Assembly: GCA_017601345.1 (NCBI GenBank) | Contig: JAFNIT010000003.1 | Coordinates: 4,994-68,993 of the forward strand | DNA: 64,000 nt | Reading direction: 5' to 3' | Source: Candidatus Brockarchaeota archaeon | GTDB taxonomy: Archaea; Thermoproteota; EX4484-205; JAAOZP01 | Part shown: positions 1,621 to 17,141 of the stretch, piece by piece | How the letters are laid out: every line of letters starts with the position of its first letter | Numbering within the stretch: the stretch's first letter is position 1 | Translations under genes and position numbers: made by a program | The notes under the pieces: generated by a model | Told to the model about the DNA's origin: nothing | Seen by the model: only the letters and a program-made list of their open reading frames with translations | Database searches by the model: none

Positions 1621-2409
1621 ATGACCCATAGAAAAGTGTTTGACAAGCTTGAGCTTAGAGAGAAACTAATAGAAAAACTTCAAAAGATGAAAGTTAAGAG
1701 GAGCGAGGACTTCAAGGTTTTCAGCGAAGTTTTCAACGTGGAAGTATTGATGCAGCTTTATGATTTGTTGAGGAAAGGAGTTTTGAAAGAGTTTAACGGA
1801 GAGGTTTCCTCGGGTAAAGAGTCCAAGGTTTACCATGCTGTTGCAAAAGGCAATGTCGAGGTTGCTGTTAAAATATACCTCACGGTCAATACAGAGATAA
1901 GGCGCATGATGCTGAAATACATAGTTGGTGATAGGCGCTTTGAAAAAGTAAAGAGCGATAGCAGATCACTCGTATATACGTGGGCAAGGAAGGAGTATGC
2001 TAATTTGAATACGATGTATATGGTAGGGCTTTCCGTTCCCCGACCCATTTTGGTTCAGAAGAATATTTTGATAATGAAGTTCCTCGGAGAAAATGGACAA
2101 AGAGCACCCCTCTTAAAAGAAGTATCGTCGCTAAATAATCCACGTGAAATTTATGAACAGATAATTGACTTCGTAGCTAAAAGCTATAAGAAGGCGAAGC
2201 TAGTTCACGCCGACCTTAGTGAGTATAACGTAATGATCTGGAATGGTGAACCTTTTATCATAGATGTTTCGCAAGCAGTTCCTGTAACGCACCCTTTGGC
2301 TGAAGAATTTTTAAAGAGAGATGTGGAAAATATAAATAGGTTCTTTCTAAAAAAGGGCTGGGTTGCTGAAGTAGTGTCATTGGAGGAGGTTGTTAAGAAA
2401 GTTGGTTAA
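1621..2409 (+). CDS. rio1: RIO-type serine/threonine protein kinase (Rio1)
   Basis: 262 aa. SSGKESKVYHA...VAVKIY nucleotide-binding region, LVHADLSEYNVM catalytic loop, IIDVSQAV. Lies in the conserved archaeal aIF1A-Rio1-KH arrangement. Confidence 0.9.
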   Translation: MTHRKVFDKLELREKLIEKLQKMKVKRSEDFKVFSEVFNVEVLMQLYDLLRKGVLKEFNGEVSSGKESKVYHAVAKGNVEVAVKIYLTVNTEIRRMMLKYIVGDRRFEKVKSDSRSLVYTWARKEYANLNTMYMVGLSVPRPILVQKNILIMKFLGENGQRAPLLKEVSSLNNPREIYEQIIDFVAKSYKKAKLVHADLSEYNVMIWNGEPFIIDVSQAVPVTHPLAEEFLKRDVENINRFFLKKGWVAEVVSLEEVVKKVG

Positions 2410-2983
2410 TGTCCTCTTCCTAGATATTCCGCAGGAGAGAGTAGGCGTCTTAATAGGAAAGAATGGTGAAGTTAAAAAGGAGCTTGAAGAAAAAATTGGT
2501 GTTAAAATCCATGTAGAGTCTGATGGACTGGTTAAGGTAGAGTACAGCACTGAAAACCCTGAGGTATACTTTAAGCTTAAAAAAGTATCTGACGCAATAT
2601 CTTGCGGATTCTCCGGAGAGGATGCTTTAAAACTTCTTGATGACGATGTTGTATTGAAGAAGATTGACCTTAGGGATTTTACAAACGAATCTTCGCAGAG
2701 AATGAAGATTCTTAAGGGAAGAATAATAGGAAGAGGAGGAAAGGTTTGGAAGAGGATTGAAAAACTCGCGGATGTTAAAATAGCAGTATACAAATATAAC
2801 GTTGGAATAATTGGCAGTGAGGAAAACTGCGAAATAGCATTTAGGACGATTCTTAAAATACTTGAGGGCTCGCAATTCAGCACCGTATTCCGGTATTTGG
2901 AAAACAAGAGGAGAGTATTAGAAAGGGGAATCTGGGTCGAGAGGAGTGAATTAACGGAAGATGAGTCAAGAGGAGAAGTTTAA
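2390..2983 (+). CDS. KH-domain RNA-binding protein (Dim2/Pno1-like)
   Basis: 197 aa with two KH-like GxxG segments (LIGKNGEVKKELEEKIGVKI; IIGRGGKVWKRIEKLADVKI). Overlaps the rio1 end and the top6B start. Confidence 0.75.
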   Translation: MLRKLVNVLFLDIPQERVGVLIGKNGEVKKELEEKIGVKIHVESDGLVKVEYSTENPEVYFKLKKVSDAISCGFSGEDALKLLDDDVVLKKIDLRDFTNESSQRMKILKGRIIGRGGKVWKRIEKLADVKIAVYKYNVGIIGSEENCEIAFRTILKILEGSQFSTVFRYLENKRRVLERGIWVERSELTEDESRGEV

Positions 2984-4523
2984 GGAGATAAGCCCAGCTG
3001 ATTTCTTCTACAGGAACAGGGATATAGCCGGATTCTCTAATCCTGTTAGGGCACTTTACACAGCTGTAAGAGAGCTTGTTGAAAACTCTCTAGATGCATG
3101 CGAAGCCAGGGGAATATTGCCTGATATAATCCTCTTTTTAAATATTGAAGGACAGGCTGATAGTGAGAGAAATATTGTTAAGATAAAAATCGCAGACAAT
3201 GGAGGAGGTATTCCTCCAGAGCATATTCCCAATGCGTTCGGCAAAATACTTTTCGGATCCAAATATACACTAATACAGTCTAGGGGCACCTTTGGACTAG
3301 GAGGTAAGATGGCATATCTCTACGGTCAAATAACTACTAATAACCCTCTTGAAGTAACCGTCGGATATCGGAAAAAAATATTTTTCTTCAAGATAATGAT
3401 AGATATAAAGAAGAATGAGCCGATAATTTTAGAAAGAAAGGAAAAGCCTAATCTCACCGGATGGAACGGGACTATTGTGAGTTTTACTCTTGAAGGCGAT
3501 TACTTCAGAGCCTTTCCGAAAATACTTGAATATATTAAGCTTAGTGCTCTAGTCACACCGTATGGCAACATTACGCTGGTAGATACTTACGGTAGGCTAA
3601 TCAGGTTTTCTCGAAGCACTCTTAAAATGCCTAATCCCCCTAGGGAAACGTTGCCTCATCCTCATGGTGTTGATGTAGAGATGGTGAAGAGGCTTGTTGA
3701 AGAAAATAAGAAGAGAACTCTTCTTTCATTTTTGACTAAAAGTTTCCATAGAGTAGGAAAAGAAACAGCCAAGAAGATACTGGAGCAGCTTAAACTTCCG
3801 CCTGATGAAAGCGTTGGAAGTCTTGGATTGAATGAAATCGTAAGGCTTACTCAAGCCCTTAAGAGTTACGATGATTTTCTCCCACCTGATGCGAGCGTCC
3901 TTTCACCAATAGGGGAGGAGCTTCTAAAAGAAGGGATTAAGAAGGAGCTTGAGCCCGAAGTATTGGCCGTTGAAAGTAGGAGGCCGCAAGCATACTCAGG
4001 ACATCCTTTCATAGTGGAAGTAGGAATAGCATACGGAGGCAAGATAACACCACCTCCAGATGGTTCCCCAATAATATATAGATATGCTAACAGGATCCCC
4101 CTCCTCTATGATGAGGCTAACGACGTAGCTTACAAGGTTGTTAACAAACTGATGAATTGGAAGCGTTATAAGATTGACCCAAGGATAGATCCTGTTAGAA
4201 TAATCGTACACATATGTTCTACAAAAATACCTTATAAGACGGTTGGTAAAGAGTATGTTGCTGATAGGCCCGAGATAGAAAGAGAAATCCTGAACGGATT
4301 GAGAAATACTAGTAGAGAGATTTCAACATACCTCTCCAGAAAAAGGAGCGTGGAGAGAGAAAAGAAAAGATTGGATGTTTACCGTAAATATTTGCCTATG
4401 ATAATAAAGTTTGCAGAAGAGGCTGCGGGAGGTAGAATAAGGATTAAAGAGGCAGATATCAAATCTTTGTTAAGCAAAATAGACAGGTATCGAACGATTC
4501 AGGAGCAGGAGGAAAAAGCTTAA
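2961..4523 (+). CDS. top6B: DNA topoisomerase VI subunit B
   Basis: 520 aa. Bergerat/GHKL ATPase N-terminus ISPADFFYRNRDIAGFSNPVRALYTAVRELVENSLDA...DNGGGIP...GTFGLGGKMA. Confidence 0.95.
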   Translation: MSQEEKFKEISPADFFYRNRDIAGFSNPVRALYTAVRELVENSLDACEARGILPDIILFLNIEGQADSERNIVKIKIADNGGGIPPEHIPNAFGKILFGSKYTLIQSRGTFGLGGKMAYLYGQITTNNPLEVTVGYRKKIFFFKIMIDIKKNEPIILERKEKPNLTGWNGTIVSFTLEGDYFRAFPKILEYIKLSALVTPYGNITLVDTYGRLIRFSRSTLKMPNPPRETLPHPHGVDVEMVKRLVEENKKRTLLSFLTKSFHRVGKETAKKILEQLKLPPDESVGSLGLNEIVRLTQALKSYDDFLPPDASVLSPIGEELLKEGIKKELEPEVLAVESRRPQAYSGHPFIVEVGIAYGGKITPPPDGSPIIYRYANRIPLLYDEANDVAYKVVNKLMNWKRYKIDPRIDPVRIIVHICSTKIPYKTVGKEYVADRPEIEREILNGLRNTSREISTYLSRKRSVEREKKRLDVYRKYLPMIIKFAEEAAGGRIRIKEADIKSLLSKIDRYRTIQEQEEKA

Positions 4524-4807
4524 TCTGCTCATCATTTAGAAAATTAAGGCCCATATGCTGCCTATGAAACCTATGGAATTAAGCTAATTTTTCTACGTAC
4601 TATTTATAGGCGGCCCATGTCCCATTTTCCAATAGCAGTTTTCTATCTGTTATCGTAAAATTCTAATAATTAGTTTTTTTTGTTTATGACTATGGGCATA
4701 AGATGAATTTTTACTAAACATGACAAAAAATAAAATGTCTCATAAAGGACAAAAATGCTCGTATTGGTGCTTAAATAAGATTAAGTAATCAGAATAATGG
4801 AGGAGGG

Positions 4808-5119
4808 ATGCAGATACTTAGAGTTGCGATGGAGCATTTCACACCTCTTCTTGGAGAAGGCGAACAAGCCATAAGCTCTGACTGGTTTACGAAGCTACTT
4901 GAAAACATTATAAGCTCTATTGAGAAAACTGTTTCAATGTTTTCAAGTATGATACTACGAGCATCATTACGTATATTATCGATGATCTACGCTCCCATGG
5001 CTGTGGTAGGGGTAATACTCTACGTAACTAGAATAAACAAGTATCTAGGTAGAGACTTGATATACGGAGCATTGGTAATAGCCTTCTTTGCAGAATTCAT
5101 ACTACCAACACTATTGTGA
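4808..5119 (+). CDS. hypothetical membrane protein
   Basis: 103-aa ORF with two C-terminal hydrophobic helices, preceded by GGAGGG 2 nt upstream of the ATG. No recognisable family. Confidence 0.4.
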   Translation: MQILRVAMEHFTPLLGEGEQAISSDWFTKLLENIISSIEKTVSMFSSMILRASLRILSMIYAPMAVVGVILYVTRINKYLGRDLIYGALVIAFFAEFILPTLL

Positions 5120-5161: not shown

Positions 5162-6454
5162 ATGGGAGAAAACATATTTAGAATAAAGAGGGTTAGGGGA
5201 AGGGAAATAATAGACTCAAGGAGCAACCCGACAGTTGAAGCGATTGTCGAACTTGAAGGAGGAAGTATAGGTCGAGCCGGTGTACCTTCTGGTGCTTCTA
5301 CCGGAAGATACGAGGCTATTGAGCTGAGGGACAGGGATGAGAAAAGGTTCCATGGTCTAGGTGTTTCCAAGGCTGTTAGAAATATCAATGAGGTTATAGG
5401 CCCGGCGTTAGTTGGTTTGGATTCTAGAAATCAACGTGAAATAGATGCTAAGATGCTTGAGCTCGATGGGACTCAGAACAAGTCTAAATTAGGAGCAAAC
5501 GCTATTCTAGCAGTCTCTCTAGGTAATGCTCTGGCAGCTTCTGAAGCTAGTCGAATGGAGTTTTTCGAGTATCTTGGAGAAGACAAAGGCGTGGTTCTTC
5601 CAGTCCCGCTGATGAATGTGATAAACGGGGGGAAACATGCCGGCAATGACTTATCTATACAAGAGTTTATGATAATACCCGCCGGCTTCAAGGATTTTCC
5701 AAGTGCATTAAGAGCAGGTGTAGAAGTCTACCAGACTCTCAAAAATGTGATAGTTAAAAAATACGGGAGATCGTCTATAAACGTCGGTGACGAAGGTGGT
5801 TTTGCACCGCCTCTTAGTCTTACGGAGCAAGCTTTGGAACTACTCCATACGGCAATCAAAGAGACAGGATATTCTTTAACCGAAGTGTTTCTTGGAATAG
5901 ATGCTGCTTCATCTTCATTCTACGATTCCTCATCCGGCAAGTATAGGGTAGACGGTAAGAACCTTACCAGTGGTGACCTCTTAGATTATTATGTCGAATT
6001 AGTCTCAAGATTTAAGTTGAAGTCCATAGAGGACCCTTTTGAAGAAAACGATTTCAAATCCTTCGCGGAAATAACTAGGAAAATAGGTTCAAAGGTACAG
6101 ATAGTTGGTGACGACCTTTTCGTAACAAATAGGGAGAGGCTTGTTAACGGTATCAGAAATGGTGCTGCAAACGCCCTGCTTTTCAAGCTCAATCAATGCG
6201 GCTCCCTCACCGAGTCGCTGGATACGTTTAAGACCGCGGTTGAGAATAAATATAGAGTTATAGTGAGCCACAGGTCTGGAGAAACGGAAGACACTTACAT
6301 TTCCGATATTGCCGTCGCCCTCAACGCAGGCCAAATAAAGACTGGAGCACCGTGTAGGGGGGAAAGAACTGCGAAATACAATAGGTTGCTCAGGATAAAC
6401 GATAAATTAGGATCTAGGGCTAAATACGGTGGGCTAGAAGTCTTTAATTTCTAG
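5162..6454 (+). CDS. eno: enolase (phosphopyruvate hydratase)
   Basis: 430 aa. REIIDSRSNPTVEA..., SGASTGRYEA, NVINGGKHAGN, IVGDDLFVTN, SHRSGETEDT. Confidence 0.95.
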   Translation: MGENIFRIKRVRGREIIDSRSNPTVEAIVELEGGSIGRAGVPSGASTGRYEAIELRDRDEKRFHGLGVSKAVRNINEVIGPALVGLDSRNQREIDAKMLELDGTQNKSKLGANAILAVSLGNALAASEASRMEFFEYLGEDKGVVLPVPLMNVINGGKHAGNDLSIQEFMIIPAGFKDFPSALRAGVEVYQTLKNVIVKKYGRSSINVGDEGGFAPPLSLTEQALELLHTAIKETGYSLTEVFLGIDAASSSFYDSSSGKYRVDGKNLTSGDLLDYYVELVSRFKLKSIEDPFEENDFKSFAEITRKIGSKVQIVGDDLFVTNRERLVNGIRNGAANALLFKLNQCGSLTESLDTFKTAVENKYRVIVSHRSGETEDTYISDIAVALNAGQIKTGAPCRGERTAKYNRLLRINDKLGSRAKYGGLEVFNF

Positions 6455-7718
6455 AGACAGCTTCTAGTAGGACTTTTCTAGTGCCTCCTGTCCCAAACAC
6501 GTTTTCTTTTCTAACACTAAGTATTATCGGGATATTGTTTGTAACATTTCCAAATGCTAAGCACTTTCCAACTGGAAGTGTTGGGACGAGGCTCATTAAA
6601 GACTCTGCATCTATCTTAGACATTTTCGAAATATAGCTTAAGTCATTCTCATTCATCAAGCTGAATATAAAACAATTATCAGCCTGTCTGTATACGAATT
6701 TCATTAGGCTATCGGGCTCATTGGTTATGAAGACTACTGATAATCCAATATGCCTCATTCGAGTTATATAATCTTCCCATGTTTTTTCATCCAGATAGGA
6801 TTGTGCTTCTTCAGCAAATAGGAACAGGGGCTTTATTTCACCGTCTTCAAGCATTTTAACAACTTTATTAAGCACAGTCTCGACGATTAGCTGTCTGAAA
6901 TGCTTCGGAAGGCCCCTTAGGTTTATAACTATAGCTTTATCAGAGACTTCCCTGAGTAGTTTATCAAGATCTGTTGCCTCATCGCTGAATAATCCGCTTT
7001 CTTTCAAGACCGTCAACCTCCTAATAAGCGCCTCCTTGACGAGATCGTTAAACCTTCCGAAGAACACCTCGTTCCAAAGGTTTTTTAGACTTAGCAAACC
7101 CCTGCTTTCTAGAGAGTCGAGTATCCTTCTCAACTCCCATACTGATGAAGGTGGAAGGCCCATTATTGTTTCCATCAGGCTTATGAAAAGCTCTTTACCC
7201 AATCCGGATATACTTAGAAACATGTTTCCACCTGGTTTCAGAACTAGGAATTTATTTCTCATAGTAGTGGGCTCGTACTCACCGTTTATATCAAACACAA
7301 GACAACGGCCGCCATGCTCTATGATTCTCACTACTAGCGTCTTCGACAAATTGGACTTTCCCGATCCTTTTCTACCGACTATTAGAGTTAAACCCCCGTC
7401 TAAGGCGCTCAAATCGATCTCAGCATTCTCGCTTATCTTTACTGGCATTAGGTATTTGTTTACAACAAGCTCTCTTAACTCCTCGCTGCTCGGCTCATAG
7501 ATCTTAGAGCCTATCCTAGAAGGAGCCCATTGGAAATCTATATTCTCATCCCCGAGGGAAAATGCTGCACGAACCTTGCAGACCAATATCCGTGAGTCTA
7601 AAAGCTCATCCAATATTTTCTTAAGTCCCTCATCCTCCTCCAGAACATAATATGATTCTTCTCTTTTGCTTATTCTTATTATCTCTTCGACTTCTCCAGG
7701 AATACTCAGATAGTTCAC
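6444..7718 (-). CDS. HerA/DUF87-family P-loop ATPase (frame stays open upstream to 7880 with no canonical start)
   Basis: Walker A GRKGSGKSNLSKT, Walker B-like PLFLFAEEAQSY, C-terminal VFITNEPDSL. The upstream in-frame stretch GRDRIVGSYLILVDTNAKRKLLLQIIDV looks like a HerA N-terminal barrel. Confidence 0.8.
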   Translation of the reverse strand: MNYLSIPGEVEEIIRISKREESYYVLEEDEGLKKILDELLDSRILVCKVRAAFSLGDENIDFQWAPSRIGSKIYEPSSEELRELVVNKYLMPVKISENAEIDLSALDGGLTLIVGRKGSGKSNLSKTLVVRIIEHGGRCLVFDINGEYEPTTMRNKFLVLKPGGNMFLSISGLGKELFISLMETIMGLPPSSVWELRRILDSLESRGLLSLKNLWNEVFFGRFNDLVKEALIRRLTVLKESGLFSDEATDLDKLLREVSDKAIVINLRGLPKHFRQLIVETVLNKVVKMLEDGEIKPLFLFAEEAQSYLDEKTWEDYITRMRHIGLSVVFITNEPDSLMKFVYRQADNCFIFSLMNENDLSYISKMSKIDAESLMSLVPTLPVGKCLAFGNVTNNIPIILSVRKENVFGTGGTRKVLLEAVSRN

Positions 7719-7849
7719 ATCTATTATTTGGAGAAGAAGCTTCCTTTTAGCATTCGTATCAACAAGGATTAAATAACTTCCAACAATCCTATCTCTGCCA
7801 GGGACTTCAAGAAGCTCGTATGTTACACCATTTTTCCTAAGTATCGTTA

Positions 7850-8713
7850 TCAGCTCCAGAACCCTCCTAAGAGCATCTTCCTATTATCTACTTCTCTCAA
7901 GACTTCTATACCAAATTTCTTCTGCATAATGCATTTTAGCGTCAAGACTTCCACTGGCAGTATCTTGGAATAGATGTGCGCAATTCTTAACGTTTCAGGA
8001 TAACCGTATTCCACACCGTCTAGAGATATTAAGGAGGCAAGTACTTTAATAACATCGTCTAATTCGATTGAAGGACATACCTCAATTTTTAACAAGGGAC
8101 CTCCTAGACTAAGCCTAACTAGATACTCCCCACTACTCCTACCGTTTAATATAGACCCTACAAACGGCGACTCCTCAATTTCCTCGGGTAAGCGTATAGA
8201 GGGGAATAAGAATCCTTTTGAAACAGAAATAATGATGTTTGAAGATCTCTTAAGAGTGTCGATTAAGCTAAACGGTTTATCTAAATTAGTTATTTCACTT
8301 AAACTCCCGTCTAAAAGTATCATTGAGTTTCTGGCCGAGTCAATGTTTTTCAATTGCTCTTCTAACTCAAAAGAGACTTGAGTATCGGATATTTCGCCGA
8401 GAACTATCATTGGCCTAGTCCTATTTATGGTAAGCGAATCACTCCTCTTAATGACGGTCGCACCTCTAATAGCATAAACTTCCCCTAAGCTGCTTATTCC
8501 CACCTTAACTGTTGAGACATCGATAGCAACAATGCTGCCAAAATGTGCTCTTTCCTCTAGAGATATTTGTGAAAATTCTCCTATTCTAATCTTGTCAATA
8601 CCATTTATCTTTAACCGTATTTCTCTCTCATCTAAAATCCGTGGCTCCGTACGTTGCCGCCTAACCCTATTGAGTGAGATTAGGCTTTGCTGCTGACCCG
8701 CTTTCACCTTCAA
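7850..8713 (-). CDS. NurA-family nuclease-like protein
   Basis: 287 aa. IVAIDVSTVKVG (DxS motif I-like), MILLDGSLSE and YGYPETLRIAHIYSKI match the NurA motif order as I recall it. Immediately upstream of, and overlapping, the HerA-like gene. Confidence 0.65.
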   Translation of the reverse strand: MKVKAGQQQSLISLNRVRRQRTEPRILDEREIRLKINGIDKIRIGEFSQISLEERAHFGSIVAIDVSTVKVGISSLGEVYAIRGATVIKRSDSLTINRTRPMIVLGEISDTQVSFELEEQLKNIDSARNSMILLDGSLSEITNLDKPFSLIDTLKRSSNIIISVSKGFLFPSIRLPEEIEESPFVGSILNGRSSGEYLVRLSLGGPLLKIEVCPSIELDDVIKVLASLISLDGVEYGYPETLRIAHIYSKILPVEVLTLKCIMQKKFGIEVLREVDNRKMLLGGFWS

Positions 8714-9185
8714 TACCCCCTGATAGCATCATTATACCTTTTGTCGATATTTCGAAAGTACCTCTAGCTTGTCTGAGAACAAGCCCCTTCTTAACAAGTT
8801 CTACCAGAGTGTTCTGTATAGTCTTCTTTGAGATATTTGAAACCATTTTAACCATTTCTTCAATACTCATGCTGCTCTTTTCGCGAAGCCCGAGTTTCGA
8901 AGCTGTGTAGCAGCCTGCAAGCAAGTAAAGTATCTTATTCTCGGTGGTCTTATTCTCTTCATCCAGTATTATTATCTCACCGTCGCTTATCTTAACATGT
9001 TGGGAAATAGATGTTAAGAGGTTTTCTAAGTCCGGTGTGTAAACTATCTTGCTAACAATACTGAGATGAGGATAAACATTCGTAAGAAACTTTAAGAGAT
9101 TTGCCACCACTTCGTCCCTGCTACCAGTAAACTCTACCCTAATATTCTTATCCGGTATTTCAAGTCTTATCATGGAGGAACTCAC
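8667..9185 (-). CDS. small two-domain protein with C-terminal winged helix (paralog of 9182..9655)
   Basis: 172 aa. N-terminal IRLEIPDKNIRVEFTGSRDEVVANLLKFL module, C-terminal HTH-like SKKTIQNTLVELVKKGLVLRQARGTFEISTKG. Overlaps both neighbouring genes. Confidence 0.55.
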   Translation of the reverse strand: MSSSMIRLEIPDKNIRVEFTGSRDEVVANLLKFLTNVYPHLSIVSKIVYTPDLENLLTSISQHVKISDGEIIILDEENKTTENKILYLLAGCYTASKLGLREKSSMSIEEMVKMVSNISKKTIQNTLVELVKKGLVLRQARGTFEISTKGIMMLSGGIEGESGSAAKPNLTQ

Positions 9186-9655
9186 CTCAATGCCACCTCC
9201 TCAAGCCTATTAACAATCTCGTCCGCTATTATCTTACCCTTCTCCGTGAGTACGTAGTTACCCAATTCGTTCCTAGTAACAATACCTTCCCTAAGCATTT
9301 CAGAGAGCCTGGAAGGATAACCTACTGAAACAATACCACTCTTGCTCAGCTGCTCACCTATTTCACTGGATTTAAGACCGTTTTCAGCAAACTTCAGAAT
9401 CAGTATTATTGCCTCTCTACTCGTTAAAAGCTCTTCTCTAACAGATAGAACTGGTTTACCCTCTTCATCGTATTTTACGAACGCGGGTAGGACGCTTAGA
9501 GTAGACTTTAACTCGTTCAGCCTCTCTTCGGTCTTTTCGAGTTCTAAGTAAATCTCAGGAATATATTTGATCATCTCCTTAACCTCATTCACATTCTCTC
9601 CAGTTACCTCGACCTCGCTGGATCCCTTCCTATACACCACCCTAATCCCCCTCAA
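9182..9655 (-). CDS. small two-domain protein with C-terminal winged helix (paralog of 8667..9185)
   Basis: 157 aa. N-terminal IRVVYRKGSSEVEVTGENVNEVKEMIKYI module, C-terminal SSEIGEQLSKSGI...PSRLSEMLREGIVTRNELGNYVLTEKG. First gene of the operon. Confidence 0.55.
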   Translation of the reverse strand: MRGIRVVYRKGSSEVEVTGENVNEVKEMIKYIPEIYLELEKTEERLNELKSTLSVLPAFVKYDEEGKPVLSVREELLTSREAIILILKFAENGLKSSEIGEQLSKSGIVSVGYPSRLSEMLREGIVTRNELGNYVLTEKGKIIADEIVNRLEEVALR

Positions 9656-9663
9656 CGTTTACT

Positions 9664-9692
9664 ACTACGTTAACGTAAACGTAGTTTATAAA
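9664..9692 (-). promoter_or_regulatory. TATA box (TTTATAAA, 9685-9692) plus inverted repeat ACTACGTT/AACGTAGT (9664-9685) upstream of the wHTH-NurA-HerA operon
   Basis: The TATA-like octamer lies about 30 nt upstream of the start codon at 9655. The perfect 8-nt inverted repeat, with the palindromic ACGTTAACGT core overlapping its left arm, lies between the TATA box and the start. Confidence 0.45.
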
Positions 9693-10000
9693 CTTTTCTG
9701 AGCCGCAAATAACAGGTTAAATGCCTGAGGAAACAAGGGGAACCAGAATTTTCCTAGCCGAGACTACGTAAGAATAATAGGTAGAATAGGCCTCATACCC
9801 TATGAACACTTTTTAGCAACATCCATCCCCAAAAACTTCCCAGCATAGATCAAGATAAGCCTGCGGTAACCCGATAACCCTCGCGTATACCCCTTGTTTA
9901 TCCTCAAACAATGGCAAAAACTTTATATATTCGCAGACCAAACTCCCTATCTCGGAGCTAAAAAACAAATCAAGAAGAATAGAAATATAGAAAAATATAT

Positions 10001-10076
10001 AGCGGGGTGGGCTAGCCAGGTCTATGCCGCAGGGCTCATAACCCTGAGATCGGTCGTTCAAATCGACCCCCCGCTA
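10001..10076 (+). tRNA. initiator tRNA-Met (anticodon CAT)
   Basis: Hand fold: AGCGGGG/CCCCGCT acceptor with A1:U72, anticodon stem CAGGG/CCCTG (three G:C pairs), loop CTCATAA, T arm GGTCG-TTCAAAT-CGACC. Confidence 0.9.
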
Positions 10077-10481
10077 CTTTTCCTTAAACAATCTATCCGT
10101 GCTTTTACCTTTAGAGATTTTCGCTCCAACCGTACGACAACCTCATCATCATGTATATCCATATCTTCAATCTCAATAATCATCAACCTCTCCTACATGC
10201 AACTTATAGCCTAATACTTTTTGCTAAATTCTTCTTTACTAGCTCCTCATTCACTAAGTCGAAAATGGTTGGCCTCCGCGATCATTTTATTGCCACTTAA
10301 GGGCTCTAGCTCACATAGCATTGAAAAATGTTGGAAGAAAACTGACCTTCCTCCCCTCTGCCACCGCTCTTATTCTGGAATCATTGTAAACTTGTTAGCA
10401 AGAGTTATTTCGAATTCCTCTAATTCCTCCCGACATCCCCAAACTCATTACTTCACTCCAAAACTGTAGTAAATTGAGATT

Positions 10482-11249
10482 TCATTCCGCCTCTTTCTCC
10501 TCATCTATTAACTTTTGCTTGAACAAGTATATGGCTATCCATTTGCCTATCCTTCCGATAAGTTTTGCATCATACCCGCACTCAACCATTTTATCTAATA
10601 TTGGGGTTTCAGGTCCATGCGTCTCAATAATATATTGCTCGGCTAAGCTTACAATTTTATTATCCAGCTTAAGCAGGGAATACTCGCAGCCTTCACAGTC
10701 CATTTTTACAAGATTTATTCTCCCCTCCTTATTGTAAATAGTCGTTAGAATATCGCATAGATCCTTCATTTGCATAGCAACCTGTTTCCCCCCAGTTGTT
10801 CTTAAACCCGTCCCATCATCCATATAGCCGACGTTAACTATGGTATCGCGGAACCACGCTCCATAGTTTAATGGAACGATCTTGCCTTCAGCATTGTTTC
10901 TAGCAATGTTTTCAACCAGGTAATCGTAGTGTCTGCCAACCGGTTCAAGTGCGTAAACCTTCTCCGCACCTTTTGAAAGGAAGAGCAAGGCGGTTTCCCC
11001 GAGGTACGCACCTATATCCACTATGATAGAACCCTTAATGTCGACGCAGGAAACTATATCCTCTAAAGGTTCTCGCAGCACCTTTAAGAGAATGATATCT
11101 TCCATATTGACAGCAATCTTGCCAAACGGTGTCTTAACGATGATCTTATCACCTGAATGACAAACATTATAGCCCTTAATTCTAGCATACAGGTGTAGGT
11201 AAATGTGAAAAATCATTGTCTTGACCTTACTGAATTCCATGGGAATCAT
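10482..11249 (-). CDS. FkbM-family SAM-dependent methyltransferase
   Basis: 255 aa. SAM motif IVDIGAYLGETALLF...KVYALEPV and C-terminal LVKMDCEGCEYSLL are typical of the FkbM family. Confidence 0.75.
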   Translation of the reverse strand: MIPMEFSKVKTMIFHIYLHLYARIKGYNVCHSGDKIIVKTPFGKIAVNMEDIILLKVLREPLEDIVSCVDIKGSIIVDIGAYLGETALLFLSKGAEKVYALEPVGRHYDYLVENIARNNAEGKIVPLNYGAWFRDTIVNVGYMDDGTGLRTTGGKQVAMQMKDLCDILTTIYNKEGRINLVKMDCEGCEYSLLKLDNKIVSLAEQYIIETHGPETPILDKMVECGYDAKLIGRIGKWIAIYLFKQKLIDEEKEAE

Positions 11250-11293
11250 AGAAAATAGCTGTAAGCATATTCATAAATTTACACTGGCAAAAA

Positions 11294-11391
11294 TGCGGGG
11301 GGTGGGATTTGAACCCACGAACCCCTACGGGAAGAGGTTCCTCCCCGAGGTCTTGAGCCTCCCGCCTTTAACCTGGCTTGGCGACCCCCGC
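11294..11391 (-). tRNA. tRNA-Leu (anticodon CAA) with a 13-nt intron at the canonical 37/38 site
   Basis: 98 nt. GCGGGGG acceptor, loop CTCAAG|A, long variable arm TCCCGTAGGGGTTC, T arm GTGGG-TTCAAAT-CCCAC. Removing ACCTCGGGGAGGA (11339-11351) restores a GGAGG/CCTCT anticodon stem. Confidence 0.85.
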
Positions 11392-11444
11392 TCTTCTTTC
11401 TCCAAGTAAAACATATTATCTCGGATTGTTTTTTAAGTTTTAGG

Positions 11445-11717
11445 TTGAGGCTGTCCGATATTTTTGCCAGCAGGGTTCAGGCGAGAGTTCTTGAAGAGCT
11501 TTTAGACGCCCCTAACACGATTTTTACTCAGATTGAGCTTTCTAGGAGGGCTGGCTGCTCTTCCTCCAGCGTTGACAGGGCTCTGAAAAAGCTTTGCAGG
11601 CTTGGGATAGTAAGGATGGATAAGCTTTCCGTTAATAAGATCGTTGCTTTAAACTTTAATAACAGGGTTGTGAGCCTACTTATCCAATTCAACAAGGATG
11701 TGAAGAAAGCTGATTGA
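11445..11717 (+). CDS. small winged-helix transcriptional regulator
   Basis: 90 aa. RVQARVLEELLDAPNTIFTQIELSRRAGCSSSSVDRALKKLCRLGIV is an ArsR/MarR-like HTH. Confidence 0.6.
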   Translation: MRLSDIFASRVQARVLEELLDAPNTIFTQIELSRRAGCSSSSVDRALKKLCRLGIVRMDKLSVNKIVALNFNNRVVSLLIQFNKDVKKAD

Positions 11718-11784
11718 GATAATTCTTAGAGAGAAGCCAGTTGGCAGAGGCATTACATTCCTCGGCTTAGAGGGGTTTAGTGGA

Positions 11785-12357
11785 ATGGGTGTTATTCAAG
11801 CGGGGAGCCTAGTCAGGCTTTTTAACATGCGGCCTATCGGCGAGATTGTTTTCTACGGTTTTCCAGACAATCTGATAATAGACTCGATGGGCACTGGCAG
11901 AATCCCCACAGTGGAGATATACTACGCTAAAACTGGGGAATTCGCGATAAGCGTGTTCACGACGATGATGAGACAGCAGTACATCGACTCCTTGATGAAT
12001 AGGGAGCGCAACATACTTCTATCAGCACTGCTCTACACTATGAATCTTATAGATTCCAAGTTTCTGATAACCATAGACTGTGTTAGCACAGCCAGCAAGA
12101 ATGAGAAAGCGTATTTAATAGTTAATTCTCCAAGACTTGTTGAAAGGTTTAAAAATAGAGAAGAGTATGCTCTGATAGAAGGAAAAAGAGTAAGAAACTC
12201 TCTCTCGTTGATAGTGGCGATGGCTAGGTTTACAAAGATCCCGGCAGTGCAGCTAATCCTGCCGATCCGAGAGCTGGCTGAGAGCAATGTTCAGCTCTGC
12301 CTCCAACACTTAGTGAGCCTCATTAAAGAAGCATTTGTCTACATAGGAAATAAGTAA
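11785..12357 (+). CDS. hypothetical protein
   Basis: 190-aa ORF with no family recognised. The frame is open from 11704 (…IEIILREKPVGRGITFLGLEGFSG-M) with no ATG/GTG/TTG start before 11785. Confidence 0.45.
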   Translation: MGVIQAGSLVRLFNMRPIGEIVFYGFPDNLIIDSMGTGRIPTVEIYYAKTGEFAISVFTTMMRQQYIDSLMNRERNILLSALLYTMNLIDSKFLITIDCVSTASKNEKAYLIVNSPRLVERFKNREEYALIEGKRVRNSLSLIVAMARFTKIPAVQLILPIRELAESNVQLCLQHLVSLIKEAFVYIGNK

Positions 12358-13701
12358 CTACGGGAAGTGCCATTGGCTTATGAAGCCATTAGCATCAAAC
12401 CCGTGTTTTTCACGCCCGTATCTTTTCAAAGGTTTAGTCAGGTGTCTATGCGCCCTTTCCGGAGGAAGGTAGGGAAAACCTTTTCTCAAGCCCCGCTCCA
12501 GCTTAATGATTTGAGGCTCCATGATACTCTCTTGACATCTCTCGCAAATAAATCCCTGCCTGAGGCCAAGATTTTTACATCTTCTACCGCACTTGGGGCA
12601 TAGTGGAGAAGTTTTCACGAGTCTTTCGCGTATTTCTAAAACCTCCATTTTCTCCGCATTAATGGTTAACAACCCTTTGTGCTCCTTAACTCCCCCGTAG
12701 ACTCTTACAAGGTCTCCTGGCTCGAGTTCAGAAGCAGCTTTCCTCAGGCTTCCGGTGGGAGAGTAGAAAGCGCAGAAAACTCTTTCGCCTCCTTGACTCA
12801 ACAATATTATAACGTGACCGCCTTGAATAATCCTCTTTTCTACTACTTCGCCCTCCACGATGACTGAATCGTATTTCTTAATATTGCCGATGGCGAGTGG
12901 CTTATCGGGGAAGTGCGCATCAGTACCCTGATTAGTCTTGAATATGCACCAACACTCAATTTCCTCCTCAGCCTTAACGAGCTTAAAGGCCTCGTAGACA
13001 GCTTGAGGAGTTTCGCCCCTTATCCCGAATAGCACAGGGTCCCTCCCGTGGGGGGTTATCAAGATACGCCCCGTTTCCGGGTCGATGTTGTTGAAAGTAT
13101 TATCAGAAACTGCCTTATCCATCGAATAAACACTCTCGCGGTCTATCATTCTAGGCTTCCCGTAATTCTCTTTAACCCTGTATGATAGAAGCTCGTAGGT
13201 ATAGTCATCGAATACTGCTCCCGCCGAGGCTAGTGCGCCCACGACCCCAACTTTAGACGTTTTCAGAAAGCTGCACGAGGCACCTACTTTCTCAGCAACA
13301 TCAAGAGCCTCAATAGGTGAAACCATGCTTCTTAAAACCCTTAAGTAGAAACTATGCAGTAAATCGCCTTTTTGAGGAACCCTGTTTAGGAAGACTATTG
13401 CAGGATCAGACCTCGGGCTATTTAAATCCGAAAGGCTTCTAACCGTGCTTAATACGATTTCTTTCACCTCATCCAGACCAATCTTAGACTCGTCAACAGC
13501 AATCCTTATGCTGACTGCCCCATTGCCCCTGGTTTTCCAAGGAATATTGGGGTTAAGCCTAACGAGAAGAGGATAGTCCAGGAACCTTATCCCGTCTTTA
13601 CCATCTAGATGCACGACTATTCTTGCAGCAACATGCGTAGTGCAGCCGAATACTTCTGAATCGGTATCGTCTATCCCGATGTTAAGCAGTGTTTCGACCA
13701 A
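12358..13701 (-). CDS. tiaS: tRNA(Ile2) 2-agmatinylcytidine synthetase TiaS
   Basis: 447 aa. N-terminal IGIDDTDSEVFGCTTH signature, OB-like middle region, C-terminal zinc ribbon CPKCGRRCKN...CERC. Confidence 0.85.
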   Translation of the reverse strand: MVETLLNIGIDDTDSEVFGCTTHVAARIVVHLDGKDGIRFLDYPLLVRLNPNIPWKTRGNGAVSIRIAVDESKIGLDEVKEIVLSTVRSLSDLNSPRSDPAIVFLNRVPQKGDLLHSFYLRVLRSMVSPIEALDVAEKVGASCSFLKTSKVGVVGALASAGAVFDDYTYELLSYRVKENYGKPRMIDRESVYSMDKAVSDNTFNNIDPETGRILITPHGRDPVLFGIRGETPQAVYEAFKLVKAEEEIECWCIFKTNQGTDAHFPDKPLAIGNIKKYDSVIVEGEVVEKRIIQGGHVIILLSQGGERVFCAFYSPTGSLRKAASELEPGDLVRVYGGVKEHKGLLTINAEKMEVLEIRERLVKTSPLCPKCGRRCKNLGLRQGFICERCQESIMEPQIIKLERGLRKGFPYLPPERAHRHLTKPLKRYGREKHGFDANGFISQWHFP

Positions 13702-13800
13702 ATGCTAAGCAGGCTTTCAAAAACAACTGTGGCTTTTAAGCGTAGTCTCAATAAATCATAGATCAAGATGTTGATGTTTAAGGATTGTAAAAACCTTAGA

Positions 13801-13874
13801 AGCCTCGGGAGGGATTTGAACCCTCGACCTGCAGCTTACAAGGCTGCCACTCTACCAGGCTGAGTTACCGAGGC
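13801..13874 (-). tRNA. tRNA-Thr (anticodon TGT)
   Basis: Hand fold: GCCTCGG/CCGAGGC acceptor, D arm ACTC-AGCCTGGTA-GAGT, anticodon arm GCAGC-CTTGTAA-GCTGC, T arm GAGGG-TTCAAAT-CCCTC. Confidence 0.9.
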
Positions 13875-13966
13875 TCGAATGATTTTTAGCCAAGAGGTTT
13901 AAAACGTTTTCGCCTTTTTAAGATCGAATGGAAAGGTTAAACTAGCTTCAACCAACTACTTAAGAC

Positions 13967-14938
13967 ATGGTTTCCAGAGCATTAGGCGAGCGTGCAATAA
14001 TAGATCTTATAAAGAAGAAGTTCTCCCAGAAGGACAATATTCTCTCACCCTACGACGATGCCTGGGGATGTGTTCTCAAAACCAAATATCTCGTTTCTTC
14101 GGGAGACATGTTTGTTGAAACAACGGATGCCCCGCCTTTTATGACTGTTAGGCAGATGGCTTTTAAAAGCTTCACAATAAGCGTTAGCGACATAGCTTCG
14201 AAAGGAGTTGCTCCAACATATTACTACTTGGTCGTAGGGCTTCCAAAAGGCTTTAGACGAGAGAGTTTTAGGGAGCTTTTGAAAGGCTGGGATGAAGCAG
14301 CAAGACTCTACGGCGGTACGATTATGGGAGGGGATACGAATGAGGCTCCTTGCATCACTATTAGCGTCATCGTAGTATCCCTCTCGGATAATCCTCCCAT
14401 CTCGAGAAGAGGCGGGAAACCCGGGGATATTGTTGCCGTAACCGGCTTCTTCGGAGAAACCTACTTAGGTTTCAAAATGATGAAGAATCCTAGTAGGATA
14501 CCTAGGAAGATAAGGAGGAGAGTAGTTGAGAAAATATGCAGGCCCGTAGCAAGACTCCATGAAGGAATAGCCCTCAACGGTGTTGCAGAAGCGTGCACTG
14601 ATTCCAGCGATGGCCTAGCTGTATCCCTCTACAATATTATTCGTGGAGGGGGGAATGGAATACTTGTTGAAAACCTTCCTCTAGCCGAGGATGTTGAAGA
14701 AGCTTTAAGCACGGTTGGAGTAGAACCTCTCCAAGCAGTGTTCTACGGTGGCGAGGAGCTGGAACTAGTTGCGGTAATCCCCAGGGAGGAGTGGAGTAGG
14801 GCTGTTGAAAAGGTTAGGCATGCAGGTGGGAGCCTCATACCGATAGGCAGGGTAATAGATAGGAGAGGAGTATGGTATCGCCGGGAAGATGGGAGAATCG
14901 TTAAAGTTTTAGAAAGAGGATGGGAACACCTTGCATAA
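13967..14938 (+). CDS. thiL: thiamine-monophosphate kinase (AIR-synthase-related fold)
   Basis: 323 aa. PurM-like pattern: YDDAWG..., SVSDIASKG, IMGGDTNEA, ACTDSSDGLA. Confidence 0.8.
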   Translation: MVSRALGERAIIDLIKKKFSQKDNILSPYDDAWGCVLKTKYLVSSGDMFVETTDAPPFMTVRQMAFKSFTISVSDIASKGVAPTYYYLVVGLPKGFRRESFRELLKGWDEAARLYGGTIMGGDTNEAPCITISVIVVSLSDNPPISRRGGKPGDIVAVTGFFGETYLGFKMMKNPSRIPRKIRRRVVEKICRPVARLHEGIALNGVAEACTDSSDGLAVSLYNIIRGGGNGILVENLPLAEDVEEALSTVGVEPLQAVFYGGEELELVAVIPREEWSRAVEKVRHAGGSLIPIGRVIDRRGVWYRREDGRIVKVLERGWEHLA

Positions 14939-14940
14939 TC

Positions 14941-15165
14941 CTAGCTTGCTACAAGAGTCTCCGTCTTATCAACGCCCTCTATCGAGTTTATTTCTGCAGT
15001 AATCATTGCCAGCTCCGATACGTCGCTTGTCTGAATCAGAACCACTATGTCAAACCTTCCGAAGCATTCGAACGCATCTATAACTCCGTCGATCTTTTTA
15101 ATTTTTTCAAGAACCTGAGTTACTTTCCCGTTGTCAACGTTAATCAACACGCAGCCATACGTCAC
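14941..15165 (-). CDS. stand-alone Lrp/AsnC-type RAM (ligand-binding) domain protein
   Basis: 74 aa. CVLINVDNGKVTQVLEKIKKIDGVIDAFECFGRFDIVVLIQTSD...IEGVDKTETLV has RAM-domain topology with no HTH. Confidence 0.7.
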   Translation of the reverse strand: MTYGCVLINVDNGKVTQVLEKIKKIDGVIDAFECFGRFDIVVLIQTSDVSELAMITAEINSIEGVDKTETLVAS

Positions 15166-15407
15166 TTCGAAACACCCTCTGTTTCAACTTCTACAAGAGT
15201 CTCCGTAGCATCAACATTTTCCAGCGATCTTATCTTCCGCACTATTCTGCCTATTCCAGAAAAACCATCTGCCTCTATTTCTGAGACAACGTCGTAAGCA
15301 CCCAGACTAGAGAACACGAGTTTAATATTCTCCATTTCCTTCAGCTTTCTGACAACGTCCTTGTAGGTTCCTGCTTTACACCTTATTAACACTACAGCCT
15401 TAACCAT
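15162..15407 (-). CDS. stand-alone Lrp/AsnC-type RAM domain protein
   Basis: 81 aa. AVVLIRCKAGTYKDVVRKLKEMENIKLVFSSLGAYDVVSEIEADG...LENVDATETLV. Overlaps the downstream paralog by 4 nt. Confidence 0.7.
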   Translation of the reverse strand: MVKAVVLIRCKAGTYKDVVRKLKEMENIKLVFSSLGAYDVVSEIEADGFSGIGRIVRKIRSLENVDATETLVEVETEGVSK

Positions 15408-15419
15408 TGCTAGTGTTCC

Positions 15420-17141
15420 TCATTTGCCTTGATTTAACTTTTTCCAAGGATGCTTCATATACAATGCGCCTTCCTGAACATCCTCTAGTCTATCTATGCC
15501 CGGGCAATTATTCAAGTAGTTTATAACCTTCTCGTTAAGAGGACCTGATGGTTTTATAATTAGGTTTATGACTCTACCGTGATAGATTTCCCTCATCGAG
15601 CTCGAAACCATTATGATGATATTATTTTTAAATGAGTAGGGTTCTCCAGTAACTGATACATTTACAAGCCACGAGTTAGATGGGAGAAACCATGATGTTA
15701 AATTACCCATCCAATCAGCCCTCCTATGGGATGTGAACATTAAGACAGCGCCCAGCCTTATATCCGTATCTATTTTAGCATTGAACAGTATAGAATAAGC
15801 GTACGCATCTTCTGCAAGTTTCAACTCCGAATAACTAACAGACTCTCTAACACCGTATGCAAATTCAGGTTTTGGAAAAGATGATGCAGCAAGTGAAAAT
15901 ATGAAATAGGCGATTATCATTCCAGCAAGATATTCTTTCTTTATACTGTCTAGCTCCTTGCTGAAAAGGCTCAGCCCGTATCCGGCTAGAGGAGTTGCAA
16001 AATATATTACGAAAGTAGGAAGCCTGTGAATAAGCACATTATAGTTTTCCAAGGAGATTATGAAGAAGGCCTCAATCATGAAGAGCGTCAACGGGGCCAT
16101 GAAGAATATTGAGTCTAAAAGCGTGCTCTTTCTACAGTATTGAATGATACCATATATTGCAAAGGGCAAGAAGCCGAGCGATATGGGAATAGTAAACCAT
16201 AGGATTGTTGGAAGGGCTTCAGGATGGAAGATCATTGTCAAAAAGCTTGGAAGGACCATTCCAATTATAGGCATTAATATAAACGTCTTTCTGGAGGCGG
16301 ATTTCTCAAACTTCTTAAGAAATCTTATGGGTTCTACTATGGCTATTGGGAAAAGGAATACTCCTGCAAGTAGTATAACGGGGAAGAGTCTAATCTTCGT
16401 AACCATATTGAAAAGAAGTATTAACGTGTTTTCATCTTCTCCTGAAAGATTCCATATATAATTTGAGGAGACTAAAAGAATGATAATTGTTATTAAAATC
16501 AAAGCAAGCAGGCGTAGTAAGCCTCTTTCCCTTAAATATCTTACGTAATAGTAAAGATATGAAAGAAAGAGGGATGAGAAGAAAAGAAATAATTGAAAAA
16601 CGGAAAGATGATGGCTCATAACAGTAAAGAAACCTGAAACCATTGCCAAGTACATCCATCTCCAATCTTCAAACGCTTTCCTCATAAAAAGCACTGATAA
16701 TCCGAAGAATAATAATCCTAAGCCCTCCGGTATTATCACACCACCTATTTGATGTACAAGTAGATTCGTTACTGCGAGGTATAGCAGCGTGTATATTGGT
16801 TCGTTTTCAGATGTTTTGAAACCTTTAGAGATAAAGTATGGCGGAAGAATGAAGAATGTAAATATAAGTGGTTCTATAAAAATTAGTATATTTAGGAACA
16901 TTTCATAGCCGAATGTTTTCAAGATTGCGAGTTGAACATAGTAGAAAAGCGGCCCGTGAGGCATGGAGACATGTTTACCTTCATTAAGCACAAGAATTCT
17001 TGACGTAAACTCATAGATGTCAAAACCATAAGGTAGACCATATTTTAGAGAAGGAGTAATCCTGAGAAGCATCGCCAGCATGAATACGAGAAGCAACCAA
17101 CAGGTATTTGTTTTTCTTAGCCTATCCAGGTTTGAACCCAT
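15420..17141 (-). CDS. polytopic membrane protein, possible GT-C-type glycosyltransferase
   Basis: 573 aa with many hydrophobic helices followed by a C-terminal soluble domain of about 130 aa. Sits in a glycosylation gene neighbourhood. The family assignment is not certain. Confidence 0.4.
   Translation of the reverse strand: MGSNLDRLRKTNTCWLLLVFMLAMLLRITPSLKYGLPYGFDIYEFTSRILVLNEGKHVSMPHGPLFYYVQLAILKTFGYEMFLNILIFIEPLIFTFFILPPYFISKGFKTSENEPIYTLLYLAVTNLLVHQIGGVIIPEGLGLLFFGLSVLFMRKAFEDWRWMYLAMVSGFFTVMSHHLSVFQLFLFFSSLFLSYLYYYVRYLRERGLLRLLALILITIIILLVSSNYIWNLSGEDENTLILLFNMVTKIRLFPVILLAGVFLFPIAIVEPIRFLKKFEKSASRKTFILMPIIGMVLPSFLTMIFHPEALPTILWFTIPISLGFLPFAIYGIIQYCRKSTLLDSIFFMAPLTLFMIEAFFIISLENYNVLIHRLPTFVIYFATPLAGYGLSLFSKELDSIKKEYLAGMIIAYFIFSLAASSFPKPEFAYGVRESVSYSELKLAEDAYAYSILFNAKIDTDIRLGAVLMFTSHRRADWMGNLTSWFLPSNSWLVNVSVTGEPYSFKNNIIIMVSSSMREIYHGRVINLIIKPSGPLNEKVINYLNNCPGIDRLEDVQEGALYMKHPWKKLNQGK

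Follow-up and report, generated by a model that had tools for sequence, protein, structure and literature searches.

The stretch of Candidatus Brockarchaeota DNA analyzed here (64 kb, referred to as the window) carries on its minus strand a compact cluster in which two small winged-helix proteins, a NurA-like nuclease, and a HerA-like ATPase are encoded one after another. The locus raises the question of whether such a cluster serves DNA-end processing or defense, and of what the two small proteins contribute to it. Identical or near-identical proteins in public records likewise carry Candidatus Brockarchaeota as their source name. In archaea, HerA-NurA drives the end resection that precedes homologous recombination. 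A sequence-only reading of the window had suggested either a regulated DNA-end-processing module or a defense module; the first suggestion is close to the conclusion favored here, and the second was judged improbable. Taken together, it is reasonably probable that the four genes constitute one leaderless, translationally coupled operon on the Candidatus Brockarchaeota chromosome, that the operon has a core repair role, and that it is autoregulated by its two small proteins, designated A and B.

The four genes overlap tightly and span positions 9655 to 6444 in the open reading frame (ORF) table. The first gene, ORF157 (9182-9655, TTG start), encodes the A-type small protein and is followed by ORF172 (8667-9185, GTG start), which encodes the B-type small protein. 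The NurA nuclease gene (7850-8713) encodes 287 amino acids (aa) from the TTG at 8713 or 285 aa from the GTG at 8707, and 285-aa NurA homologs begin at the position equivalent to GTG 8707. The last gene encodes a HerA-family ATPase of 469 aa and was assigned to 6444-7853; the ORF table had 6444-7718. ORF157 and ORF172 overlap by 4 nucleotides (nt) (9182-9185), the GTG start of ORF172 meeting the ORF157 stop codon as GTGA, and ORF172 overlaps the NurA gene by 47 nt (8667-8713), or by 41 nt if NurA starts at GTG 8707. The ATPase frame, open as far as 7880, takes in the NurA stop codon TGA (7852-7850), and the NurA-HerA overlap is 4 nt (CTGA). The overlaps of 4 and 47 nt and the location of the NurA stop codon had been given correctly in the sequence-only reading, and its proposal of a four-gene operon is supported both by the overlapping genes and by a single conserved promoter with a putative operator preceding ORF157 (9655-9698, minus strand). 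Furthermore, an identical four-gene order was found in genomes whose proteins are only 40-60% identical, which indicates that the arrangement is not due to chance.

The ATPase proved to be a HerA-family member, as had been proposed from its motifs. It matched the Pfam family PF01935 (DUF87, the HerA central domain) with an E value of 5e-13 (50.1 bits; cutoff, 23.2), and its best sequence match among solved structures in the PDB was Sulfolobus solfataricus HerA (4d2i), followed by several defense-system HerAs at 1e-6 to 1e-8. The motifs GRKGSGKS, LFLFAEEAQ, AIDVST, ILLDGSL, and GYPETLRIAH, which had been read from the two enzymes, were all found in the ORF translations; the first two are the Walker A and Walker B motifs of HerA, and TRMRHIG is its arginine-finger region. 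Among 15 clade members, with identities down to 34%, residues G160, K162, G163, G165, K166, S167, F344, E348, E349, and A350 were invariant, as was the arginine-finger block T364, R365, M366, R367, H368, and G370. A profile alignment (hhalign) of the HerA clade with canonical HerA gave a probability of 99.2% and matched R367 to the R of GRKFG. Within the clade, the N-terminal 100 residues, where a HerA would have its HAS barrel, show conservation (P18, P52, G53, E56, and R60 are invariant), and they align to canonical HerA from residue 49 only. The NCBIfam equivalogs of canonical-repair HerA, NF040937 and NF040819, were not reached (48.5 bits versus 800 and 16.9 bits versus 970, respectively), and we place the window HerA in a clade separate from canonical HerA.

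The NurA-like call for the preceding gene was upheld by way of its relatives. The window protein had no match in direct Pfam, PADLOC, or PDB sequence searches, and it reached the NCBIfam model NurA_Sulf with an E value of 0.06 only. A homolog search returned about 29 close relatives of 282-285 aa, conserved at 59-91% identity, and then PF09376-bearing proteins at an E value of 5.5e-14. Relatives within the clade exceeded the PF09376 gathering score of 21 (L006, 30.0 bits; P0030, 26.0 bits), and PF09376 relatives of this type were tied to the window NurA by the 5.5e-14 match and by one iterated profile. A profile of 33 NurA members sharing 20-59% identity had a single PDB match, S. solfataricus NurA (2ygk_A; E value, 6e-4), to which the GYPxxLxxAH and LxDGSL blocks aligned. 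The catalytic motifs of the window protein, which follow one another in NurA order, are AIDVS (D65), FELEE (E116), LLDGS (D135), and GYPETLRIAH (Y238 and H246), and D65, E116, D135, G136, K166, Y238, P239, L242, and H246 were invariant in all 33 members. Pesticin chimeras, which were the sole matches of a profile of the close family, were judged spurious; it was the broader 33-member profile that reached 2ygk. When the NurA family was compared by hhalign with one canonical NurA sequence, the probability was <1%. The protein is 285 aa long in the window, versus 330-390 aa in other lineages of the clade, and the 287-aa ORF product is accordingly classed, from sequence comparison, as a NurA in a minimal 285-aa form.

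The two small proteins had been described as a duplicated pair with a C-terminal winged helix-turn-helix (wHTH), and both parts of this description were borne out. BLASTP of ORF157 against ORF172 was not significant, and an hhalign comparison of the A family with the B family gave a probability of 95% (E value, 3.7e-8) over the full length, which indicates that the two proteins are ancient paralogs. AlphaFold2 predicted for both two beta-hairpins with one or two helices between them, and then a winged helix-turn-helix that is followed by a terminal helix; in ORF157, the N-terminal module was predicted as a beta-hairpin, one long helix, and a second beta-hairpin. Mean pLDDT values were 86 for ORF157 and 75 for ORF172, with values of ~90 or higher over most of the C-terminal halves. 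Foldseek matched ORF157 only to winged-helix regulators (MarR, MntR, SSV1 F-93, and AspA; E values of ~1e-3) and ORF172 to winged-helix proteins only. The matches covered the C-terminal 70-80 residues, with a Foldseek probability of ~1.0 and TM-scores up to 0.68 on the target, and no full-length or N-terminal-module match to either protein was found in PDB or BFVD. The two proteins differ in charge: ORF157 is acidic throughout (pI 5.1; median of the A type, 5.7), and ORF172 has an acidic N-terminal half and a basic winged-helix half (pI 9.7).

Neither small protein reached the cutoff of any curated wHTH family in Pfam or NCBIfam, and no Pfam family covers the small family, of which 2 of 32 members gave marginal generic matches. 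ORF157 had no PADLOC match, and ORF172 had only weak generic wHTH matches in Pfam and PADLOC; those of the latter to Csa3/CARF or AbiEi types were treated as generic winged-helix similarity. Weak matches in PHROGs were limited to families annotated as “transcriptional regulator.” Among 1.84 billion sequences, the small family had 291 representatives at an E value of ≤0.001 and 60 at ≤1e-10. No description of these proteins was found in the open-access full text, the scope of the search (subscription papers and database-only annotation, such as arCOG, lay outside it). A and B are thus members of a previously undescribed family that combines an N-terminal alpha/beta module with a winged helix.

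The family is closely tied to the enzymes. When each GTDB species was represented by one genome, a relative of the window HerA was encoded in at least 305 of the genomes scanned; the carriers were mostly Bathyarchaeia, plus Nitrososphaeria, Hecatellales, and Brockarchaeota. A few records of HerA relatives bear bacterial names and are probably mis-binned. ORFs were called in 89 loci and searched with iterated profiles. NurA lay directly upstream of HerA in 84 of these loci, and the contigs of the remaining five end at or inside herA. For upstream linkage, the 64 loci with at least 3 kb of sequence upstream of NurA were considered, and in 63 of them at least one small-family gene lay immediately upstream of NurA. 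In the reverse direction, three weak and distant matches to the small family, from Nitrososphaerales, Conexivisphaerales, and a metagenome, were all found to adjoin NurA-HerA divergently, with two more small genes alongside. The linkage of the small proteins to NurA and HerA genes in other genomes, on which the sequence-only reading had made its proposal depend, therefore holds, and the family can be regarded, from gene neighborhoods, as a near-obligate companion of this NurA-HerA clade.

The small-family genes number 1 to 5 per locus and form ordered arrays. Four subfamilies were distinguished: A, like ORF157 (39 members); B, like ORF172 (81 members); C, divergently oriented from NurA (39 members); and D, a fourth type that shares the strand of NurA (19 members). 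The commonest architectures were C'-NurA (18 loci), A-B-NurA, which is the type of the window (10 loci), A-B-B-NurA (6 loci), D-B-C'-NurA (5 loci), and D-A-B-C'-NurA, A-B-B-D-NurA, and A-B-D-NurA (4 loci each). NurA and HerA of these loci belong to a distinct, highly divergent clade that, to judge from its distribution and chromosomal position, is vertically inherited through Bathyarchaeia, Nitrososphaeria, Brockarchaeota, and relatives.

The promoter of the operon contains a conserved repeat that points to its mode of control. On the minus strand, a transcription factor B recognition element (BRE)-like GAAAAG (9698-9693) is followed by the TATA box TTTATAAA (9692-9685), by TACGTTTACGTTAACGTAGTAGTAAACG, and by the TTG start codon of ORF157. 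Four ACGT cores lie inside TACGTTTACGTTAACGTAGTAGTAAACGT (9683-9655), and the last of them overlaps the ORF157 start. The start codon follows the TATA box at a spacing of 30 nt, so that the transcript is presumably leaderless or near-leaderless, and the repeats cover the initiation site. The proximal 46 nt were 91-100% identical in seven Brockarchaeota loci, and the 64 nt further upstream were 9-36% identical, which is no better than random. Because the flank is randomized and synonymous sites of the adjoining genes are heavily substituted, the 46-nt element must be strongly constrained. The motif TACGTWWACGTWR had six overlapping matches at two sites in the window, versus 0.5 expected; four were in the ORF157 promoter cluster, and two were inside the aglB coding sequence. 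The operator-like site at the latter position (TACGTATACGTAA, 54673-54686), within the coding sequence of the STT3/AglB oligosaccharyltransferase, is probably a chance occurrence.

Similar repeats were found at related loci, also in other lineages of phylum level. Upstream of A-led operons, ACGT occurred at 2.27 per 100 nt, versus a background of 0.26 (~9-fold), and two or more ACGT cores were present upstream in 23 of 30 A-led operons, versus 2.9% of background windows. A-led operons of Bathyarchaeia and other lineages carry two to four TTACGT/AACGTT repeats beside the TATA box. Divergent C-type loci have a different conserved intergenic element, the partly palindromic TTTAAATGTTGCGCATG-N-CAA, located ~100 nt upstream of NurA and common to the C'-NurA loci of Bathyarchaeia and Nitrososphaeria (e.g., L027, L058, L066, L071, and L081). 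The type of cis element thus covaries with the type of small protein, and this covariation provides the chief reason to propose that the small proteins recognize these sites and autoregulate the operon, as the conserved TTACGT repeats themselves suggest.

The genomic context bears on the role of the enzymes. That no Mre11 or Rad50 gene lies near the cluster, as had been noted earlier, holds over the whole window: when its six-frame ORFs of at least 60 aa were searched with profiles for Mre11, Rad50, HerA, NurA, and the small family, only the four genes were matched, and no Mre11, Rad50, second HerA, second NurA, or extra small-family gene was found in the 64 kb. Thirteen orthologous loci encode a Mre11 homolog downstream of herA and in its orientation, and Rad50 adjoins this homolog in every case in which the contig extends far enough. 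The mre11 gene is directly adjacent in L018-L020 and L023, where no more than some tens of bases lie between the herA stop codon and its start, and in L018-L020 the operon reads A-B-D-nurA-herA-mre11-rad50. The lineages in which mre11-rad50 follows right after herA are Bathyarchaeia and Hecatellales. The sequence-only reading would have taken the window genes for the housekeeping repair pair if they were the only herA/nurA pair in their genome and if orthologous loci carried mre11-rad50; the latter half was found. An apparent Rad50 beside herA in L012 was a false positive and corresponds to a coiled-coil membrane protein.

The 3' end of herA overlaps a convergent enolase gene by 11 nt (6444-6454 in the window and 4427-4437 in L092), and the junction persists in a second lineage of Brockarchaeota, with a HerA of 41% identity, and in L004 (9425-9455); between these three lineages, HerA is only about 40% identical. 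We rejected the idea that P0063, the Brockarchaeota HerA with 41% identity, represents a second paralog within the same genomes; its gene likewise converges on the enolase gene, which makes it a positional ortholog from another lineage. Two side observations concern this junction. In L012, from a Brockarchaeota relative, an insertion of ~9.5 kb (7569-16863) separates herA from the enolase gene and is probably an integrated mobile element; it encodes two coiled-coil membrane proteins, a 1,018-aa methyltransferase-like protein, a 659-aa MCM-like protein, and a 406-aa tyrosine integrase. The public metagenome-assembled genomes of L093 (4427-5818) and L097 (4265-5772) have two ORFs in place of an intact enolase gene beside herA, likely owing to assembly or frameshift errors.

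In addition, one locus, L048 (Bathyarchaeota B24_G1, QMYG01000017.1, 1-10177), carries two NurA-HerA pairs in tandem. The pair of the divergent clade (NurA, 2363-3439; HerA, 3436-4923) is accompanied by A-B-C' small genes, and a canonical set (NurA, 5978-7432; HerA, 7416-9047; and Mre11) follows ~1 kb downstream, past a NUDIX gene. The canonical NurA of L048 (484 aa) matched PF09376 at 1e-14, and the canonical HerA (543 aa) scored 231 bits on NCBIfam helicase_HerA; its scores of 231 and 195 bits on the NCBIfam HerA models are below the curated cutoffs and well above those of the window clade. Because L048 carries both, the clade is paralogous to canonical HerA and NurA and not merely a fast-evolving ortholog.

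The most likely role of the module, as far as gene content and position can tell, is core double-strand-break and recombination processing, because orthologs are joined into nurA-herA-mre11-rad50 operons and because the genes hold a fixed place among housekeeping genes. By analogy with the characterized archaeal complexes (PMC3300031 and PMC8708640), and given family membership and the conserved catalytic residues, a HerA hexamer would translocate along or unwind DNA and pass it on for strand degradation at DNA ends by a NurA dimer. The conserved operator, the predicted fold, and the charge distribution make autoregulation by sequence-specific DNA binding the most likely function of A and B. 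The sequence-specific targets of the two proteins would be the TTACGT repeats that separate the TATA box from the start codon, and their binding would prevent transcription initiation until the repression was relieved by a signal, for example, DNA damage. The basic winged helix of B would contact the DNA, and the acidic A could serve as a hetero-oligomer partner or modulator of B.

Several points weigh against this combined interpretation. A different factor, encoded elsewhere, might be what binds the putative operator. Mre11 and Rad50 are missing from the window, and the NurA assignment is transitive, the window protein itself having no significant Pfam match. Where both sets are retained, as in L048, the clade may do a job distinct from canonical end resection. 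Finally, the presence of two to five paralogs per locus, their translational coupling to the enzymes, and the acidity of A are unusual for plain repressors and fit structural subunits equally well.

The strongest competing explanation follows from this last point. On this view, A and B would belong to the NurA-HerA machine as stoichiometric accessory subunits or as DNA loaders and would not be transcription factors, or they would be both, with the winged helices recognizing DNA ends or sequences or docking on HerA or NurA and the N-terminal modules pairing A with B. We consider this explanation rather doubtful. The gene overlaps with the enzymes (4 nt and 41-47 nt) favor fixed-ratio co-expression, the paralogs form ordered arrays such as A-B, A-B-B-D, and D-A-B-C', their co-occurrence with the enzymes is near-obligate over very deep divergence, the A type is atypically acidic for a DNA binder, and the full-length proteins lack structural matches in PDB or BFVD. 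However, the conserved operator is placed exactly where a repressor would act, the C type is divergent from NurA and shares a conserved intergenic element with it, which is the classic layout of a local regulator, and 18 loci have no small gene other than one of the C type. Regulator and subunit roles do not exclude each other. A broader proposal combines them: the small proteins would be core subunits of a second archaeal NurA-HerA machine, acting as end sensors, loaders, or orientation factors, and would also be autoregulators tuned by the TTACGT-repeat operator; this machine would be present in the dominant mesophilic Bathyarchaeia and Nitrososphaeria, including Nitrososphaerales, alongside or instead of canonical HerA-NurA. 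The proposal as a whole is tentative and would appear to be true in a minority of plausible scenarios. If it is correct, DNA-end processing in these archaea uses a component that has no counterpart in the Sulfolobus and Pyrococcus models.

The second alternative is that the operon is an anti-virus or anti-plasmid defense module, in which the HerA ATPase works with NurA as the effector and the winged-helix proteins are sensors or regulators. HerA matched the PADLOC models mad8 (7e-21) and HerA (3e-18) along with several defense HerA models, the solved defense-system HerA structures mentioned above were also matched, HerA/NurA paralogs at CRISPR loci are documented (PMC3973734), and the clade coexists with a canonical repair set in L048. 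Yet the PADLOC and PDB matches are limited to the generic ATPase core, and neither NurA nor ORF157 has a PADLOC match. The annotated neighbors at the examined loci include no SIR2, DUF4297, mad1-7, restriction-modification, or CRISPR gene. The enolase-side position is fixed while HerA diverges to 41% identity, the clade is present in at least 305 species genomes, and it is joined to mre11-rad50 in several lineages. The fixed position and the mre11-rad50 association indicate a vertically inherited core repair module and not a defense island, and the defense explanation is accordingly considered improbable.

The start of the HerA gene requires comment, since its apparent loss could be taken as a sign of decay. 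The presence of the ATPase gene had been recognized in the sequence-only reading; the extent given for it in the ORF table (6444-7718) needed correction to 6444-7853 by alignment of ortholog starts. Orthologs encode a 469-aa ATPase with a TTG start that overlaps the NurA stop codon as TTGA; in the window, a CTG at 7851-7853 (minus strand) takes this position and overlaps the NurA stop codon as CTGA. The CTG is common to four species-level genomes (the window, L009, L010, and L011), and a GGAGG sequence is retained 10-14 nt upstream of it. No ATG, GTG, or TTG occurs among the 45 codons after the CTG in the window and L009. Some of the residues that these codons encode are invariant throughout the clade, and their synonymous to non-synonymous differences were 20:3 (window versus L011), 10:4, and 6:0. 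The ortholog start alignment, the purifying selection on the 45 codons, and the clade-invariant residues together identify 6444-7853 as the true gene, and translation is predicted to start at the CTG or by reinitiation at the NurA stop codon. Public annotation of close relatives gives HerA lengths of 415-424 aa, the 424-aa call lacking the N-terminal 45 residues; this annotation is evidently shortened because the 45-codon stretch has no canonical start. The locus offers a clean natural example of archaeal translation that starts at a conserved CTG codon or by termination-reinitiation. The view that the locus is decaying, with the ATPase start codon lost, NurA truncated, and the genes left as relics, could appeal to the missing ATG/GTG/TTG start, the shortened annotations, and the NurA length of 285 aa instead of 330-390 aa, but it is highly improbable in light of the shared CTG and retained GGAGG, the mostly synonymous change, the invariance of all catalytic and ATPase residues, and the conservation of the short NurA in its ~29 close relatives.

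The favored reading, a core repair operon autoregulated by A and B, would have several implications. The separate NurA-HerA clade spans Bathyarchaeia, Nitrososphaeria, and Brockarchaeota, which are globally abundant and mostly uncultured groups, and to our knowledge, work on HerA-NurA has been confined almost entirely to Sulfolobus and Pyrococcus. What is new here is the dedicated small winged-helix family together with the promoter repeats; the repeats provide a regulatory model, and the paralog arrays suggest extra subunits. Whether the small proteins are regulators or subunits, they would add a missing component of archaeal recombination and repair, possibly a DNA-damage-responsive switch; we know of no regulator of this kind in these lineages.

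Other annotated neighbors of the clade include Topo VI B, translation factors (eIF), tRNAs, tRNA synthetases, GatDE, and Ogg with RsmB. In the window, a tRNA-Met(CAT) gene (10001-10077, plus strand) and a 98-nt tRNA-Leu(CAA) gene (11294-11391, minus strand) lie just upstream of the operon, and an FkbM-type methyltransferase gene (10482-11249, minus strand) lies between them. Several ORFs listed in the region 9800-10740 are probably spurious overlaps of the tRNA-Met gene and the intergenic region.

Among known systems, the MarR/ArsR/MntR regulators, SSV1 F-93, and pNOB8 AspA resemble ORF157 and ORF172 in the winged-helix fold predicted for their C termini, and a conserved repeat that is a putative operator in the operon's own promoter is a further likeness to the MarR/ArsR/MntR type. 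The small family differs from such regulators in its N-terminal module, which is unmatched in structure and sequence, and in forming ordered paralog arrays tied to one enzyme pair. For the subunit explanation, the nearest parallel is the gamma domain of FtsK, whose winged helix recognizes KOPS sites and orients a translocase of the FtsK-HerA superfamily on DNA. If A and B act on HerA, they would likewise be winged-helix DNA readers tied functionally to a motor of this superfamily; the winged helices of the window are, in contrast, unfused and carried on separate small proteins, and the analogy draws on established knowledge only.

The defense HerA modules, which comprise the CRISPR-associated Cas HerA/NurA modules (PMC3973734), HerA-SIR2, HerA-DUF4297, and MADS mad8, share the HerA-like ATPase core with the window clade. 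Unlike them, the clade has no effector, CRISPR array, or restriction-modification gene among its annotated neighbors and is located in the syntenic core genome with a lineage-wide distribution.

The closest known system is the canonical herA-mre11-rad50-nurA cluster, the double-strand-break resection operon of Sulfolobus and Pyrococcus (Constantinesco et al., 2004, as cited in PMC9905601; for the NurA structure, see PMC3300031). The likenesses are that the window HerA has Walker A, Walker B, and the arginine finger, that it is coupled to a NurA with the D-E-D-(Y)-H catalytic set, and that clade orthologs adjoin mre11-rad50 in several lineages. In contrast to the canonical operon, the window has no Mre11 or Rad50 gene, its HerA is far below the equivalog cutoffs, and its NurA is minimal and without a direct Pfam match. 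The gene order also differs, being nurA-herA followed by mre11-rad50 where these are present, and the clade coexists with a canonical set in L048. The foremost differences are the dedicated small winged-helix family, 1 to 5 genes of which precede the NurA-HerA pair of this clade in nearly every locus that could be scored, and its putative operator.

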